Of a DNA stretch of 5,839 bases, positions 1-5,839 are shown piece by piece; within the stretch, counting starts at the first letter, position 1, and every line of letters starts with the position of its first letter. The DNA comes from a virus. Taxonomy: Duplodnaviria > Heunggongvirae > Uroviricota > Caudoviricetes. The notes under the pieces were generated by a model. That model was not told where the DNA came from. It searched no databases and saw only the letters and a list, made by a program, of their open reading frames with translations. The translations under genes were made by a program, and so were the position numbers. The stretch lies in the IMG/VR virus record IMGVR_UViG_2671180395_000013; one strand, given 5' to 3'.

Positions 1-270
1 GGCCACCAGCAGAGGCGGCATTGCCTTTTCGATCGCCGGTAACAGAGCCTGCATTTTTTCAACTGCATCAGGGGTGTCTTTCTCTATCCAGCGGAAAATT
101 TTCTGGGTATTGCGAGCCAGGGCTTCCGGATGGCTGTCGTCGTACAGTTCAGGAAACGTCATACCCAACTCAAAATAAGCCTGGGTTATTCCAGCTGCCG
201 GAACTTTTTCGCCATCAGGACGCGCCCAGGCATTCATCGCCATGCGGATGTGTTCATGCTTGATTTTCAT
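1..270 (-). CDS. YdaT-like (CII-analogue) prophage regulatory protein, N-terminal 90 codons only; gene continues past the window start
   Basis: Minus-strand ATG at 270-268 with a G-run Shine-Dalgarno (complement of 275-280). Translation MKIKHEHIRMAMNAWARPDGEKVPAAGITQAYFELGMTFPELYDDSHPEALARNTQKIFRWIEKDTPDAVEKMQALLPAIEKAMPPLLVA stays open to the window edge. N-terminus and overall pattern resemble Rac YdaT as I recall it (not searched). Sits directly downstream of the cro-like gene, as cII does in lambdoid phages. Confidence 0.7.
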   Translation of the reverse strand, partial: MKIKHEHIRMAMNAWARPDGEKVPAAGITQAYFELGMTFPELYDDSHPEALARNTQKIFRWIEKDTPDAVEKMQALLPAIEKAMPPLLVA

Positions 271-496
271 GAATCCCCCCTTGGTTAGAAGGCGGATTAT
301 GATCAGAATCGGGAATGACAACCGTCGGTATGTGTAACTCATATTTGAGCGCCCCGGCAGTGACTGCCTGAATTAGCAACGCCCATTTCCACGGAACGTC
401 TTCCCCCCACATGCTGACTGTGGTTTTTGACGTTCCTAGAGCGGCGGCTGTTTTAACAACTCCGCCAAAATAGCCTAATACTTCTGATTTTTTCAT
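254..496 (-). CDS. Cro-like HTH DNA-binding protein (YdaS/Cro family), 80 aa
   Basis: ORF-track frame 254..544; preferred start is ATG at 496 with GGAG 6 nt upstream (complement of 503-506). Alternative starts are ATG 508 and TTG 544. Helix-turn-helix segment GGVVKTAAALGTSKTTVSMW. Divergent from the cI-like gene; 3' end overlaps the YdaT-like start by 17 nt. Confidence 0.75.
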   Translation of the reverse strand: MKKSEVLGYFGGVVKTAAALGTSKTTVSMWGEDVPWKWALLIQAVTAGALKYELHIPTVVIPDSDHNPPSNQGGIHENQA

Positions 497-524
497 GAGT
501 CGCTCCATAAAACTGAACGCCAAA

Positions 525-588
525 AGTTTAATAATCAAAACCAAAGAAAGTCAAGAAACAAAACCATCTGTGTTTTAAAATCAAAACA
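525..588. promoter_or_regulatory. OR-like divergent control region: three operator-like sites (526-541, 548-563, 572-587) overlapping PR-like and PRM-like promoters
   Basis: Two 16-bp sites share GTTT-N8-AAAC symmetry and are 14/16 identical (gtttaataatcaaaac at 526-541; gttttaaaatcaaaac at 572-587). A weaker third copy ends in caaaac at 558-563. Spacing of 22-24 bp resembles lambda OR1-3. Minus-strand -35 TTGACT (complement of 548-553) and -10 TAAACT (complement of 525-530) would drive cro. Plus-strand -10 TAAAAT (576-581) lies 6 nt before the cI ATG. Confidence 0.5.
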
Positions 589-1226
589 TGAACAAGCAAA
601 CAATATCTGAACGCATAACCCAACGTATGCATGCGCTAAACTTGAAAGGCAAAGACCTTGTCAATGCCACTGGCGCATCAAAAGGCTCCGTAAGTCAATG
701 GATGAACGGTGGAGGAGCGCCGTCCTCGCGTTACATAAGTTCACTGGCAAAGATATTGAAAGTAAACGAAAATTGGCTTCTTAATGGAGGAGAGTTAAAT
801 ACAGGTGATTCGCTTGATCTATCTTTACCGCCGATAAAAACGGTTCCGCTACTATCACTTCAGCAGGCAGCAAGCTGGAGTGATTATATGAAAAATTCCT
901 CAATAACCTCTTGTGTGCAGCTTGTCGGAGAAATCCCGGCCAATACCTTTGCTGTTGTTCTAGAGAGTGACAGTATGTCGACATCTGGTGGTGGAGTTTC
1001 CATCCCAAATGGTTCAACAGTTTTTGTTGATCCCGATCGAATCGTACAACCAGGAAATATTGTCCTTGCCTTACCCAAAGGGACCACAACGCCTGTCATT
1101 CGCAAACTGGAGATAGAAGGGCCGGATATTCTTTTAGTCCCCACGAATCCTCGCTACCCTTCAATTATGCTGGATGATCTATCTTGCATATTGGGAGTAT
1201 GCTTTAAAATTCAACAAGATATTTAA
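588..1226 (+). CDS. CI-type prophage repressor: N-terminal XRE-family HTH plus C-terminal S24 (LexA-like) peptidase domain, 212 aa
   Basis: HTH segment DLVNATGASKGSVSQWMNG. S24 signature with candidate catalytic Ser129 (LESDSMS) and Lys173 (VIRKLE), about 44 residues apart as in lambda CI. No Shine-Dalgarno before the ATG, consistent with a leaderless PRM-type transcript. Divergent from the cro-like gene. Confidence 0.85.
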   Translation: MNKQTISERITQRMHALNLKGKDLVNATGASKGSVSQWMNGGGAPSSRYISSLAKILKVNENWLLNGGELNTGDSLDLSLPPIKTVPLLSLQQAASWSDYMKNSSITSCVQLVGEIPANTFAVVLESDSMSTSGGGVSIPNGSTVFVDPDRIVQPGNIVLALPKGTTTPVIRKLEIEGPDILLVPTNPRYPSIMLDDLSCILGVCFKIQQDI

Positions 1227-1293
1227 CCAACCTCATCTATTTGATTAACTGTATGCCATCGTAGTGATGGCGTAACAGCTGCCTGCTTAAAAT

Positions 1294-1339
1294 GTTTTGA
1301 TAAAAAAACATTGACCTTAAATGTTCGTTTTTCTAAACT
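1294..1339 (+). promoter_or_regulatory. Sigma70-like promoter with operator-like site; candidate repressor-controlled promoter of the downstream operon (dicBp/PL analogue)
   Basis: -35 TTGACC (1311-1316), 17-bp spacer, -10 TAAACT (1334-1339). Directly upstream, gttttgataaaaaaac (1294-1309) matches the reverse complement of the OR site (gttttgattttaaaac) at 13/16. Inverted repeat aacatt/aatgtt brackets the -35. Confidence 0.4.
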
Positions 1340-1518
1340 TCATTCATTCCCTCACCCCGCCCCACAGAATGCAGGGCAATACTTCGAGTTACCAGGCAGT
1401 GGTCAGGGGTTAAGTAGCCAGCCCGAGGCGTAAGAACATGACGGCAGGGTTCAACTTTAATAACTATGCAGCAGGTTTTTGTTCCGCTACCCCGGCGTTA
1501 AGGGGAAATGAGGTCAAC

Positions 1519-1671
1519 ATGGATACGCTCAATCTTGGCAACAACGAATCTCTGGTATGTGGCGTGTTCCCCAACCAGGACGGTACGTTCACCGCGATGA
1601 CGTATACCAAAAGCAAAACGTTTAAAACTGAAGCTGGCGCGCGTCGCTGGTTAGCCAGAAACACTGACTGA
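1519..1671 (+). CDS. Small hypothetical protein, 50 aa (first gene of the operon; similar size and position to Qin ydfA)
   Basis: ATG 1519 preceded by GAGGT with 5-nt spacing. Translation MDTLNLGNNESLVCGVFPNQDGTFTAMTYTKSKTFKTEAGARRWLARNTD. The ORF track offers a longer in-frame start at ATG 1438 (77 aa, GAGG 9 nt upstream). Stop TGA overlaps the next ORF's ATG (TGATG at 1669-1673). Confidence 0.55.
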   Translation: MDTLNLGNNESLVCGVFPNQDGTFTAMTYTKSKTFKTEAGARRWLARNTD

Positions 1672-2321
1672 TGAGGTTGACGATGGAATTTAAAGATTTA
1701 CCTCCTTCAATCCAGGAGATTGCAGCACACACACTTCGTCATCGTCTGAACGAACTTGAATTGGAATCGGTAACGAAAAAAGACACTGATAATATGGCTC
1801 GTAATGTGCGCGATGCGTTTACCGGATTGTATTTCTGTGCGTCTATAAATAAACACGACTCAGAGAGTGTGGCAAATAAAATTGCAGAAACGACAGCGCA
1901 AAACATCAATACGAAACCAACGGAAGAAGAAATTGATCAGTTTGCTCATGATGCTGGTTTAAAAAACAAGAAAGAAAAATCGCCATATGCGGGGAACATG
2001 TTTGTTTATGACAATCTCATCAGAATTCGTGGCGAAATTCCGGCGGAATACCTGGCAAGAGTCCATCAGGCATTGCTTAAAAATTTGGAAACAGAATTAT
2101 TTGATGGCAACACTAACGGTTTCTTCATGGTATCAGGCCTTGAGAAAGACTGGGATGCAGAAAAACGCTGGAATGTTGCTACATGGTTATTCAGTAACAG
2201 AGCCGCTGCACTGGAAGCTTCGGCATGTATTTGCGGCCTGTTCTTAACAGACCACAAATATAATCTGGATGTGTACAGTTATATTTACGCTGAACACGGT
2301 CCACTCTGGATTGACTGGTAA
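1671..2321 (+). CDS. Hypothetical protein, 216 aa, no recognisable domain
   Basis: Long open frame with enterobacterial codon usage. ATG 1671 overlaps the upstream stop; an alternative ATG at 1683 has GAGG 5 nt upstream (MEFKDL...). No TM segment and no motif I can assign. Confidence 0.7.
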   Translation: MRLTMEFKDLPPSIQEIAAHTLRHRLNELELESVTKKDTDNMARNVRDAFTGLYFCASINKHDSESVANKIAETTAQNINTKPTEEEIDQFAHDAGLKNKKEKSPYAGNMFVYDNLIRIRGEIPAEYLARVHQALLKNLETELFDGNTNGFFMVSGLEKDWDAEKRWNVATWLFSNRAAALEASACICGLFLTDHKYNLDVYSYIYAEHGPLWIDW

Positions 2322-2531
2322 TTATAAGGAAACACCAGCAGGGCCGCGGCGACCAACAGAACGATTAAAATCAATAATGCCATTATAAAGGACATTATTT
2401 AATTTATCGTCGAATGCTGATTCTGTGAGCCTCAACTCTGAATGAGTTTTTAATAACCCTGATTGCCTGAGTTGATTTACCAGGCATTCAATCTGTTTTT
2501 CAATAAGCGGATTTCTTTTTTTGTTTGGCAT
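2322..2531 (-). CDS. Hypothetical small protein, 69 aa, antisense to the operon
   Basis: Minus-strand ATG at 2531 preceded by GGAGGA (complement of 2536-2541). ORF-track frame extends to 2543. Stop codon abuts the 216-aa gene's stop with zero gap. C-terminus (RSVGRRGPAGVSL) looks like read-through of GC-rich non-coding DNA. Confidence 0.3.
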   Translation of the reverse strand: MPNKKRNPLIEKQIECLVNQLRQSGLLKTHSELRLTESAFDDKLNNVLYNGIIDFNRSVGRRGPAGVSL

Positions 2532-2858
2532 TTTATCCTCCATTGAGGTTCTGGGTTAAAAATGGAGACCAACACGCTGTCACGTGTGGTCGTGCGCCGG
2601 ACACGGATAAGAATCCGGTACTGACAGTTTACTGAAAGGATATTTCCCTGAAAAGTCAGTGCATAACGCGAAAGCGTACGGCGAAGCTCTTTCCCTTAGA
2701 AGGCTTGTCGTTAGATTTCTTCGAACGTGCGCTTCCGGTTGTGGCACTCCGCGAAATGGCGCGGCGGTAAGTATGGCGGGGTTATTCCTTCCCCATTGAG
2801 GACACCGGGTTGTCAGGTTGACCATACGCTTAAGTGACAACCCCGCTGCAACGCCCTC

Positions 2859-2908
2859 NNNNNNNNNNNNNNNNNNNNNNNNNNNNNNNNNNNNNNNNNN
2901 NNNNNNNN
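2859..2908. other. Assembly gap: run of 50 N
   Basis: Fifty consecutive n characters. Identical 15-mers cgctgcaacgccctc flank it at 2844-2858 and 2909-2923. Confidence 0.95.
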
Positions 2909-2933
2909 CGCTGCAACGCCCTCTGTTATCAAT

Positions 2934-2986
2934 TTTCTGGTGACGTTTGGCGGTATCAGTTTTACTCCGTGGCTGCTCTGCCGCCC
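2934..2986 (+). ncRNA. dicF: DicF-like small regulatory RNA (53 nt)
   Basis: tttctggtgacgtttggcggtatcagttttactccgtggctgctctgccgccc matches the E. coli Qin DicF sRNA as I recall it, with about one substitution. Lies about 175 nt upstream of a dicB-like gene, as in K-12. Ends in a GC stem plus T-run. Confidence 0.75.
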
Positions 2987-2991
2987 TTTTT
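2949..2991 (+). terminator. Intrinsic terminator forming the 3' end of DicF
   Basis: Stem ggcgg(t) 2949-2954 pairs with gccgcc 2980-2985, with an internal helix (cag 2957-2959 / ctg 2973-2975), followed by TTTTT at 2987-2991. Must be leaky, since operon genes continue downstream. Confidence 0.6.
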
Positions 2992-3160
2992 AAAGTGAAT
3001 TTTGTGATGCGGTGAATGCGGCTAAGCGCACGCGGAACAGTTAAAACCAAAAACAGTGTTATGGGTGGATTCTCTGTATCCGGCGTTAATTGTTAACTGG
3101 TTAACGTCACCTGGAGGCACCAGGCACTGCATCACAAAATTCATTGTTGAGGACGCGATA

Positions 3161-3349
3161 ATGGAAACGTTATTACCAAACGTTAATACGTCTGAAGGTT
3201 GTTTTGATATTGGTGTTCTGCTCAGTAACCGGGAGTTTACTGAAGATGCCATTAACATGAGGAAATATGAGCCTTATCTGCTCAATGATAATTCCATACT
3301 TTCCCGAATTGCTCTTCTTGAACTTGGTATTTTCGGAGAACGTCAATGA
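3161..3349 (+). CDS. dicB: DicB-like cell-division inhibitor, 62 aa
   Basis: ATG 3161 with GAGGA 7 nt upstream. N-terminal half METLLPNVNTSEGCFDIGVLLSNREFTEDAIN closely matches recalled K-12 DicB (MKTLLPNVNTSEGCFEIGV...); same 62-aa length. The C-terminal half diverges. Confidence 0.8.
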   Translation: METLLPNVNTSEGCFDIGVLLSNREFTEDAINMRKYEPYLLNDNSILSRIALLELGIFGERQ

Positions 3350-3534
3350 CTTCAGCATTTGCACTGATGATGACGGTTTTTCTTATAACGGGTGAATCAC
3401 AGAATGTGATTACCGGAATTTATGCCAGTAAAGAATCCTGCCTCCAGGCAAGAGACGAGCAAAAAATTTCTGGTGAATGCCTCCCGGTAAAAAAAGTATC
3501 GCTGTACCTGAATAACGAAACACCGGCTGGATAA
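3346..3534 (+). CDS. ydfD: YdfD-like small membrane (lysis-associated) protein, 62 aa
   Basis: ATGA start/stop overlap with dicB-like gene; GGAGA 6 nt upstream. Hydrophobic N-terminus MTSAFALMMTVFLITG followed by a polar domain with two Cys. Size and position match Qin ydfD. Confidence 0.65.
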   Translation: MTSAFALMMTVFLITGESQNVITGIYASKESCLQARDEQKISGECLPVKKVSLYLNNETPAG

Positions 3535-3626
3535 CCCTCCAGCCATATTAACACCATACCAACGGATTAAAAATGCCAGCAATGGCAGGGATTTGTTCAC
3601 CCTTAAATCTGTAATGAGGTTTATCA

Positions 3627-4871
3627 ATGAGCACTGATAAAGAAGAATTTGCGCTATATTGCGAAGCAAAAAATGACAAAGTCAGAAAACGTCTGGGAAT
3701 TAAAGGTGGTTTTTACTGGACTACAGCAAAAAAATTATCTGTTGCCATCTCCCGCTGCATTACCGCAATGGATGACAACGATTATGATGAAGACGACTTT
3801 AAAAAACCCGTTCGCGTCCATTTACCCGTTGTGAATGACCTTCCACCTGAAGGCGTGTTTGATACCGAATTCTGCAACCGATACGAAAAAGGCGGGGAAG
3901 ATGGCATTACAATGGTATTTATCGCGCCCTCTCCCTCCGTGCAGGAGAAACCAGCCAGTACTGACAATACCAACGTCAACGGCGAAGACATGACGGAGAT
4001 TGAGGAGAATATGCTCCTGCCGGTTTCTGGTCAGGAGCTGCCCATTCGCTGGCTTGCGCAACACGGCAGCGAAAAACCAGTAACGCACGTTGCACGGGAA
4101 GAACTTCAGGCATTACATATAGCACGGGCGGAAGAACTGCCGGCTGTTACTGCCTTGGCCATTTCTCACAAAACAAAGCTGCTCGACCCGCTGGAGATTC
4201 GCGACCTTCACAAACTGGTACGCGACACTGACAAAGTTTTCCCTAATCCCGGTAATTCAGACCTGGGACTGATAACTGCTTTTTTCGAGGCATACCTGGA
4301 CGCTGACTACACTGATCGGGGTCTGCTGACAAAAGAGTGGATGAAAGGAAATCGTGTTTCGCGTATCACCCGTACGGCTTCCGGTGCAAATGCCGGTGGC
4401 GGGAACAAAACCGATCGCAATCCGAATTTAGTACACACCTTCGATACGCTGGATGTGGAGATTGCAGCAGCCACACTTCCGATGGATTTTAATATTTATG
4501 AAATTCCGGGCAGCGTTTATCGTCGCGCAAAAGAAATCGTCCTGAAAAGAGAAAGTCCGTTCAAAGAATGGTCCGCAGCACTTCGCGCAACCCCGGGTAT
4601 TCTGGACTATTCCCGCGCCGCTATTTTTGCACTTATCCGGAGCGCTCACCCTGAGTTTTATCACTACCCGGGACGCCTTCAGGGGTATATCAACGCCTAC
4701 TTAACGGAGACTGATCACGAGAACCCCAGCAAGGAAACTCTCACTGCTGCACGACATACACCGGAAAAAGATATCCTGGAAGAAGTTAACCGCGAACTGT
4801 CTGCTAAGCAGGAAACAGAAGAAGAAAATGATGAAGAAAAACCGCAACCATCTTGCGCAATGGCAGAATGA
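3627..4871 (+). CDS. Hypothetical protein, 414 aa, acidic C-terminal tail (position of Qin ydfE)
   Basis: ATG 3627 with GAGG 7 nt upstream. Long open frame with a Gly-rich loop (SGANAGGGNKT) and an acidic tail (ETEEENDEEKPQPS). No domain I can assign. 3' end overlaps the integrase remnant frame. Confidence 0.75.
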   Translation: MSTDKEEFALYCEAKNDKVRKRLGIKGGFYWTTAKKLSVAISRCITAMDDNDYDEDDFKKPVRVHLPVVNDLPPEGVFDTEFCNRYEKGGEDGITMVFIAPSPSVQEKPASTDNTNVNGEDMTEIEENMLLPVSGQELPIRWLAQHGSEKPVTHVAREELQALHIARAEELPAVTALAISHKTKLLDPLEIRDLHKLVRDTDKVFPNPGNSDLGLITAFFEAYLDADYTDRGLLTKEWMKGNRVSRITRTASGANAGGGNKTDRNPNLVHTFDTLDVEIAAATLPMDFNIYEIPGSVYRRAKEIVLKRESPFKEWSAALRATPGILDYSRAAIFALIRSAHPEFYHYPGRLQGYINAYLTETDHENPSKETLTAARHTPEKDILEEVNRELSAKQETEEENDEEKPQPSCAMAE

Positions 4872-5404
4872 TAATCAGAAGAAATCTGGCAAAAGACCGT
4901 TTTACAGTACCAAAAACACAGGCGGGAACCAATCGTGTGATTCACCTTATTAAGCCCGCAATCGACGCTCTCCGGAGTCAGATGGCACTAACGAGACTGA
5001 GCAAAGAGCATATCATCGATGTTCACCTCAGAGAATTCGGCAGAACAGAGAAACAAAAATGTACCTTTGTTTTTCAACCTGAAGTGTCAGCGAAAGTAAA
5101 AAATTATGGCGACCATTTTACCGTTGACTCAATAAGGCAGATGTGGGACGCAGCGGTAAAGCGTGCCGGAATCCGCCATCGCAAATCGTATCAGTCGAGA
5201 CACACTTATGCCTGCTGGTCGTTAACAGCAGGAGCTAACCCGGCATTCATTGCAAACCAGATGGGCCATGCAGATGCGCAAATGGTGTTTCAGGTGTACG
5301 GGAAATGGATGTCAGAAAATAATAATGCGCAGGTAACGCTGTTAAATACACAGTTAAGCGAGTTTGCCCCAACCATGCCCCATAACGAAGCGATGAAAAG
5401 TTAA
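4853..5404 (+). pseudogene. Tyrosine recombinase (phage integrase) C-terminal catalytic-domain remnant; N-terminal and core-binding domains absent
   Basis: Frame opens after TGA 4832-4834; first start-like codon is TTG 4853. Contains a beta-hairpin Lys region (TVPKTQAGTNRVIHL), box II-like SRHTYACW, GHAD, and candidate catalytic Tyr in VYGKWM. Only about 183 aa against roughly 350-400 for intact integrases. No upstream frame encodes the N-terminal domains. Confidence 0.7.
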
Positions 5405-5581
5405 TTTTTTATTTATCAATTAGTTAGATTGAATGACTCTTGAAATCCATAATTCATAGATGTTTTTTACTATTCTGTGGGTTTTTGGGTGTTTTCTAAG
5501 TTTTTTCAGATGGTTGTATTTTTTCTAAAAATCCCTAATCTCGATTTTGCTGTTTATTTGAGGCCTTTTTATGTCCCATAT

Positions 5582-5824
5582 ATGCCCCACAGATACCCCG
5601 CAGCCAAAATCAACAAAATGCCAAAAGGTTCTGTTCCTGCCCTGCAACAAGAAATGCTGCGACGTGTCAGTAAACGTTATGACGATGTAGAAGTGATCAT
5701 CAAATCCACCAGCAACGATGGCCTTTCAGTTACTCGCACCGCCGATAAAGATTCTGCAAAAACTTTTGTTCAGGAGACGCTGAAAGATACCTGGGAGTCT
5801 GCTGACGAGTGGTTTGTTCGCTAA
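5582..5824 (+). CDS. Hypothetical small protein, about 80 aa
   Basis: Open frame 5477..5824 in the ORF track starts at GTG, but the first 35 codons are Phe-rich translation of T-rich DNA. First ATG in frame is 5582 (alternative 5618); neither has a clear Shine-Dalgarno. The C-terminal 70 aa look like real protein (charged, mixed composition). Confidence 0.4.
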
Positions 5825-5839
5825 TTAACGAGTAAAATC

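Follow-up and report, generated by a model that had tools for sequence, protein, structure and literature searches.

A full-length DicF small RNA with an A39G substitution in the early-left operon of an EHEC-type lambdoid prophage at ydfJ

Does the 58-nt stretch that precedes a dicB-like gene in this prophage DNA encode a true copy of DicF, the small RNA (sRNA) of the Escherichia coli K-12 Qin prophage, and would the single base by which it departs from K-12 alter the hairpin or the pairing with ftsZ? The original prediction, made from the letters of the window (the whole stretch of 5,839 nt analyzed here), had taken it for DicF, and the comparisons that it proposed bear this out. When the window was scanned against all of Rfam, the DicF model RF00039 matched positions 2935 to 2986 on the plus strand at 75 bits (E 9.2e-16; curated gathering threshold, 48 bits), covering model positions 1 to 52 of 52, and a rescan of the gap-free sequence from a complete genome returned the same 75-bit score. 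Alignment to the K-12 reference dicF (b1574, NC_000913.3 1649382-1649434) was ungapped, with 52 of 53 bases the same and bases 1 to 38 identical throughout. The sole difference is A39G, at window position 2972 (gtgActgc in K-12, gtgGctgc here), which is the one base that the original prediction had noted as unlike K-12. Likeness to K-12 extends on either side of the RNA: about 67 nt directly 5′ of DicF are the same, and the spacer between the DicF 3′ end and the dicB ATG (3161) is 174 nt long in both, on the same strand, with only 2 differences, so that the predicted distance to dicB holds to the nucleotide.

The claim that DicF carries its own terminator is likewise supported. Both the minimum free energy (MFE) fold and the consensus structure of Rfam show a hairpin of 7 bp plus 4 to 5 bp (−15.4 kcal/mol) followed by U5, and a terminator scan of the window detected part of the DicF stem together with the T tract. 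Since the 58-mer alone folds no better than its shuffles (z −1.37), we dropped fold stability as evidence for DicF, and the identification rests on homology instead. Sequence comparison confirms the window DicF as a genuine, full-length copy of a known sRNA, an identification that is not in itself new; what is gained is a further dicF copy, correctly identified, from a prophage of the EHEC type. The coordinates of all features are collected in Table 1.

Table 1. Features of the window, with the strand and the evidence for each
Feature	Position	Strand	Evidence
P22-Cro-like regulator	254..496	-	Pfam P22_Cro, E 1e-15
Repressor, 212 aa, helix-turn-helix + S24 peptidase	588..1226	+	Pfam, PHROG
Palindrome TGTTTT-N6-AAAACA abutting promoter -35	1293-1310	+	
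Candidate PL-type promoter TTGACC-17-TAAACT	1311-1339	+	promoter scan
ydfA-like, first operon gene (DUF1391)	1519..1671	+	Pfam PF07151, E 4e-30
212-aa ORF, PHROG family of unknown function	1683-2321	+	
Convergent 69-aa ORF, PHROG family of unknown function	2322-2531	-	
Non-coding leader, ~345 nt real sequence	2591-2933	+	
Module A, upstream part of conserved non-coding leader	2591..2748	+	~90% identical to K-12 ydfC-dicF spacer
Element B, 95-nt structured leader element	2749..2843	+	covariation-supported
Element B H1	2749-2753 with 2760-2764	+	
Element B pseudoknot, GUAUGG with H3-loop CCAUAC	2771-2776 with 2822-2827	+	
Element B H2	2777-2781 with 2791-2795	+	
Element B H3	2807-2815 with 2835-2843	+	
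Assembly artefact: 50 N (2859-2908), then 15-mer repeat (2909-2923)	2859..2923		complete-genome flanks
Precursor hairpin GUUAUCA/UGGUGAC, AUUUUC loop	2925..2944 (2925-2931 with 2938-2944)	+	precursor-unit folds
Mature 53-nt DicF sRNA, A39G allele	2934..2986	+	RF00039, 75 bits; 52/53 K-12 b1574
Terminator hairpin + U5	2949..2991	+	MFE fold and Rfam consensus structure agree
Terminator outer stem	2949-2955 with 2979-2985	+	
Terminator inner stem	2957-2960 with 2972-2975	+	
U5 (T5) tract	2987-2991	+	directly 3′ of DicF
Structured dicF-dicB spacer	2984..3193	+	fold, inverted repeat, sub-threshold STnc100
dicB, 62 aa	3161..3349	+	Pfam DicB full length, E 6e-37; RefSeq annotation
ydfD-like (DUF1482)	3346..3534	+	Pfam PF07358
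Exonuclease VIII / RecE fragment	3627-4871	+	
Integrase remnant	4853-5404	+	
DinI-like gene	5582-5824	+	

We asked what the substitution does to the RNA. In the numbering of the 53-nt form, bases 16 to 22 pair with 46 to 52 in the outer stem and bases 24 to 27 with 39 to 42 in the inner stem. The partner of base 39 is U27, within the upper terminator helix, so the substitution does fall in the stem-loop, as had been foreseen, and it turns the U27-A39 pair of K-12 into a U·G wobble. The effect on predicted energies is slight: the MFE hairpin is −15.9 kcal/mol for K-12 versus −15.4 kcal/mol for the window, and the Rfam consensus structure is −13.7 kcal/mol for K-12 versus −14.0 kcal/mol for the window. 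A duplex with the K-12 ftsZ leader (−100 to +30), predicted with intramolecular structure ignored, has an energy of −38.5 kcal/mol and the same pairing scheme for A39 and G39. In this predicted duplex, DicF bases 26 to 36 pair with ftsZ −2 to −12, spanning the GGAG ribosome-binding site, and bases 41 to 52 pair with −18 to −28, while bases 37 to 40 form an internal loop in which base 39 is unpaired. Every DicF base that pairs in this prediction is the same as in K-12, so the ftsZ-pairing residues, which were to be checked, are kept. The ftsZ leader itself varies little: 5,389 of 5,426 complete E. coli genomes match it at 99% identity or more, and strain E2865, whose leader is 100% identical, carries the exact window DicF allele too. 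In published work, DicF engages the ftsZ ribosome-binding site through its 3′ part, and xylR and pykA are targets of its 5′ part (PMC5069750, PMC9438474). The predicted duplex, with the 3′ half on the ribosome-binding site, agrees with the division of roles described in PMC5069750, and the 5′ region to which that paper assigns target binding (xylR, pykA, and manX) is unchanged relative to K-12. By these structure and duplex predictions, A39G leaves the hairpin in place and spares all bases predicted to pair with ftsZ. It would be a structure-preserving change, and K-12-like DicF behavior is to be expected of this allele.

The sequences that would govern release of DicF from a longer transcript are also conserved. 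In folds of the precursor, the 5′ processing site (the DicF 5′ end at 2934) lies in an AUUUUC loop, closed by a hairpin predicted to sequester DicF bases 5 to 11, and the sequence of hairpin and processing site is the same as in K-12, for which PMC5069750 and PMC9438474 name RNase E as the enzyme that generates the DicF 5′ end. Downstream, the dicF-dicB spacer folds at −65.5 kcal/mol with a z score of −4.84. Its closing helix is 19 bp long (2996-3014 with 3125-3143); the inverted-repeat search recovered it at 95% complementarity, and exchanges between C-G and U·G and between G-C and G·U preserve it from locus to locus. The closing helix is likely an RNase III substrate; a 72-nt form of DicF would end near 3005, in mid-helix, as would be expected for an RNase III cut.

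The original prediction went further and held that DicF anchors the whole window as a dicB-type division-control operon. This stood for ydfA, the leader, dicF, the spacer, and the 5′ part of dicB; it did not stand for the immunity switch or for the genes in the place of ydfB and ydfC. Homologous to K-12 Qin at the DNA level are ydfA, the leader, dicF, the spacer, 5′ dicB, 3344-3384, 3573-3621, and the integrase remnant, and the block from the leader through dicF and the spacer into 5′ dicB, at 90 to 95.5% identity, is the best-conserved DNA of the operon. No DNA homology to K-12 Qin was detected in the immunity region. Where Qin has DicC and a 135-aa DicA, the window has a P22-Cro-like regulator and a 212-aa S24 repressor, which matches DicA at 24 of 65 aligned residues and has only the helix-turn-helix in common with it. 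With a repressor of the cI/LexA type rather than DicA, the induction signal and conditions may differ from those in K-12. At what we take to be the Ala-Gly cleavage site of related repressors (lambda cI, LexA), this protein reads QQAASW. The RefSeq annotation of O157:H7 strain TR01 shows just the C-terminal 113 aa of the repressor, and the ORF is open from 588. The palindrome beside the candidate promoter has a second, exact copy at 571-588, in the interval that separates cro from the repressor gene, and both copies are plausible candidate operators, an arrangement of promoter and palindrome in keeping with PMC6832061, where the dicBF promoter is regarded as an analogue of PL.

Within the operon, the ydfA-like product shares 43 of 49 residues with K-12 YdfA. 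K-12 has ydfB and ydfC next, whereas the window has an ORF of 212 aa and, convergent to it, one of 69 aa; the latter is antisense to the operon transcript, which must cross it to reach dicF. Neither ORF has a Pfam or PADLOC match, both fall in PHROG families of unknown function, and on this outcome the idea that the pair forms a defense system was rejected. The dicB product is full length, with a C-terminal half strongly unlike K-12 DicB: 37 of 55 aligned residues are identical, mostly N-terminal, and DNA homology to Qin ends about 100 nt into the gene. Downstream, the RecE-like ORF (414 aa) retains the N-terminal Exonuclease VIII domain only. It is open in the window and is an annotated pseudogene in TR01, from which it differs by 7 small indels. 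In TR01, the homologous DNA makes up the early-left arm of a lambdoid prophage of ~40 kb that interrupts ydfJ, where Qin sits in K-12; IS elements and a second prophage directly follow it. Each end of the TR01 prophage codes for the same DinI-like protein (226-468 and 39441-39683 of our locus L004). The window represents a dicBF-type early-left operon from a lambdoid prophage at ydfJ.

Genome searches show how widespread the RNA and this allele are. Of 5,426 complete E. coli genomes, 3,823 have dicF at 90% identity or better, each with at most 6 copies, and the exact 58-nt allele was found in 493 records among the same 5,426 genomes. In canonical DicF, variation among the loci compared falls mainly at positions 12, 39, and 53. 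Genomes of O157:H7, O26, and O121, two assemblies of strain 86-24 among them, match region 2560-3200 of the window at 100% identity, and, judged from such matches, the A39G allele is common in EHEC/STEC strains. Among the matches listed in complete genomes, RefSeq automatic annotation places no feature under dicF. A further 61 phage records carry the leader-dicF-dicB block, and the annotation of phage Tritos names DicF. A scan of species-representative genomes returned 7 loci, from E. coli, Escherichia ruysiae, Shigella flexneri, and three metagenome bins; outside Escherichia/Shigella, none of these genomes had DicF except the three bins, which were assigned to Veillonella parvula (L008), Collinsella (L010), and a soil proteobacterium (L009). 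Given their E. coli-prophage-like flanks in unrelated taxa, these contigs are probably mis-binned.

Three alternatives to a functional, correctly placed DicF were weighed, and the first concerns the assembly. The run of 50 N lies 26 nt 5′ of DicF with the 15-mer CGCTGCAACGCCCTC on both sides (2844-2858 and 2909-2923), and in complete genomes the flanks of the run are contiguous, overlapping by exactly 15 nt. It is most likely a scaffold joint between two contigs with a 15-nt overlap and is not to be taken for biology. Masked or hidden sequence was rejected as an explanation, since complete genomes have nothing between the flanks, and a real insertion in the source strain keeps a slim residual chance. 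A joint of this kind, so near to DicF and in a group of strains with several dicF loci and up to 10 matching places per genome, could mean that the dicF-dicB contig was attached to the immunity region of the wrong prophage. However, at least 25 complete genomes have exactly this order, contiguous and 100% identical over the joint, and we regard such a chimera as extremely improbable. For TR01, identity is 100% over window positions 1-2858 and 99.7% over 2909-5839.

A correctly assembled DicF might nonetheless be a silent relic, DicF by descent but never made, or it might be a mere internal operon terminator with no role in trans. The prophage is partly decayed, with a truncated integrase, a RecE fragment, and, in TR01, a frameshifted portal gene, and in K-12 no natural inducing condition has been found for the dicBF operon (PMC6832061), all of which would fit a relic. 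We nevertheless think this very unlikely, given that the leader-dicF-spacer block outranks the rest of the operon in conservation, the immunity region having no detectable homology to K-12, that no damage is seen in the repressor, the promoter-like site, ydfA, dicB, or ydfD, and that four DicF orthologues of O157:H7 are reported to be produced microaerobically (PMC6832061, PMC7873438). Finally, the A39G allele could be functionally unlike K-12 DicF in termination efficiency, stability, or target preference (for example, for pchA). Its frequency (493 exact records), its enrichment among O157, O26, and O121 matches, and the standing of base 39 as one of only three commonly variable positions of canonical DicF would be compatible with a difference in function, but the pair is retained as U·G, hairpin energy shifts by no more than 0.5 kcal/mol, and base 39 is unpaired in the predicted ftsZ duplex. 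We consider a functional difference unlikely, if somewhat less so than silence.

Our preferred reading, to which we give a probability of roughly 0.93, is that this is a real dicF, of an A39G allele common in EHEC/STEC, in the repressor-controlled early-left dicBF operon of a lambdoid prophage at ydfJ. From homology to the K-12 and EHEC literature we infer how it would act. Relief of the repressor would allow the promoter 5′ of ydfA to transcribe through the ~345-nt structured leader into dicF. Termination at the DicF hairpin and U5, together with an RNase E cut in the AUUUUC loop, would yield the 53-nt RNA, while in transcripts that read through, RNase III would cut the 19-bp downstream helix to give the 72-nt form and dicB mRNA. 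With Hfq, the 3′ half of DicF would pair with the ftsZ ribosome-binding site, blocking translation and causing filamentation, and the 5′ half would repress xylR, pykA, and manX, with activation of pchA also expected in EHEC. For Sakai and 86-24, both EHEC strains, four dicF copies are described as being made microaerobically and activating pchA (PMC7873438, PMC6832061, PMC9438474).

The leader upstream of DicF contains a structured element of its own, which we call element B. It follows module A, which occurs alone in phage phiSTEC1589-Stx1c. A four-helix model of element B (H1, H2, H3, and a pseudoknot) was tested on 29 diverse sequences, in which 93.8% of cells were paired versus at most 51% with slid partners. 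Five pairs were changed on both sides (shuffle mean, 2.2), and the covariation score was 0.097 versus 0.069 for the control, with 0 of 500 shuffles reaching the observed value. H2 has been rebuilt from wholly different sequences in several lineages. A scan of IMG/VR found 120 further element B loci. The element occurs without dicF in phages cdtI, Ayreon, 2H10, Stx2c, Salmonella F1055, Actinobacillus, P1, P7, SJ46, and RCS47; its coordinates are 2501-2595 in L012, 1501-1623 in L013, and 1501-1604 in L015. In the lambdoid cdtI, 2H10, and Actinobacillus phages it lies ~350 nt 3′ of the repressor gene, and in P1 and P7 it comes just after the C1-controlled Pban promoter. No Rfam model matched element B in scans of the window and of other loci. 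A tRNA- or tmRNA-like nature was rejected, as ARAGORN called no genes and the Rfam tRNA and tmRNA models gave no match. Homology to the put element of HK022 was also rejected: putL, located in the HK022 genome by the primers given in PMC9378689, aligned with nothing beyond the 9-mer GCGCGGCGG. Two additional pairings were dropped from the model, a second pseudoknot segment (UAAG/CUUA), broken by P1, P7, and cdtI variation in the alignment, and a long-range pairing of GCGGGGUU with AACCCCGC (repeat I4), which has no support in P1 and is displaced by preferred local hairpins.

What follows element B varies from locus to locus. All loci examined have a hairpin and a T run after it, with different unit sequences, and the DicF position is taken by at least 10 different sRNA-like units, each ending in a terminator (loci L013, L014, L015, L027, L038, L043, L049, L072, L108, and L012/L018). 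Some are hybrids that retain part of DicF: the L027 unit has the DicF 5′ half with a different hairpin, the L038 and L056 units have the first 11 nt of DicF with a short hairpin, and the L043 and L138 units have a different 5′ part with the DicF hairpin. At least 6 are unrelated (the cdtI, Actinobacillus, L108, L072, L049, F1055, and P1/P7 types). Against RF00039, L043 alone of the variant units passes the threshold, L027, L072, and L108 score below it, and the others gave no match at E values up to 0.01. In L108 (894-1359) and L072 (4732-5215), a DicF-like unit is followed by an STnc100-like element, IsrK, and C4 antisense RNA, a series that is a dense early-left array of non-coding RNAs. In Actinobacillus phage vB_Apl-pPE4 (L015, 1600-1800), a tandem duplication takes in the DicF-like unit together with its linker; this region is ~85% identical to E. 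coli prophage sequence, which is unexpected for a Pasteurellaceae phage. We suggest, tentatively and at less than even odds, that DicF is one cassette of a modular phage sRNA system in which element B always stands ~20 to 90 nt before a variable, terminator-ended unit. By its predicted structure and position, element B could be a cis platform steering how the following sRNA folds or is processed at its 5′ end, or it could let RNA polymerase pass the sRNA terminator to reach dicB/kil-type genes. If element B is needed for DicF-family RNAs or for dicB read-through, it would help to explain the control of these toxic operons and the swapping of sRNA “seeds” between phages. Element B and its variable cassettes might be the sole part of this analysis that is new.

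Comparison with known systems places both the leader element and DicF itself. Element B resembles HK022 put in position, as a structured RNA in an early, repressor-controlled transcript 5′ of intrinsic terminators, and HK022 and the element B phages are alike in having no obvious N gene; put differs in having two stems without the pseudoknot proposed for element B, and the sequence relation is limited to the 9-mer. In the leader of the P1 ban operon, a segment annotated as a “dicF-like region” (NC_005856, 68791-68892) shares element B at 79% identity with compensatory changes, likewise under a repressor-controlled promoter, and a hairpin with a T6 terminator comes next. In P1, however, this terminator-ended unit is unrelated in sequence to DicF and gave no RF00039 match. 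The dicF-dicB spacer, for its part, aligns with STnc100 (RF02076) over all 206 model positions, with the long closing helix and the CACCNGGAGGCACCNGGCAC hairpin in common, at a score of 34.7 bits against a threshold of 47, and so is not a member of that family by the Rfam criterion. A 2026 preprint ties the STnc100 family to PasD prophage sRNAs (bioRxiv 10.64898/2026.05.13.724894), from which the window spacer differs in lying within an operon, as the dicB 5′ UTR.

With K-12 Qin DicF, the window locus shares the hairpin, the U tract, the leader, the spacer, the 174-nt distance to dicB, and the order ydfA...dicF-dicB-ydfD; it differs in A39G, in the replacement of ydfB and ydfC, in its immunity type, and in belonging to a much larger lambdoid element. 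Melson and Kendall, in 2019, are said (in PMC7873438) to have placed multiple dicF copies of EHEC O157:H7 in CP-933/Sp prophages. From these EHEC copies (Sakai, EDL933, 86-24) the window locus has no detectable difference, the 86-24 locus being 100% identical over 2560-3200, and on this identity the window dicF is very likely one of the EHEC O157:H7 copies. Another paper describes both multiple dicF copies in EHEC O157:H7 and a composite prophage, CP-933O (Balasubramanian 2016, PMC5069750); the position of the window prophage at ydfJ, beside a second prophage, would be consistent with that composite.
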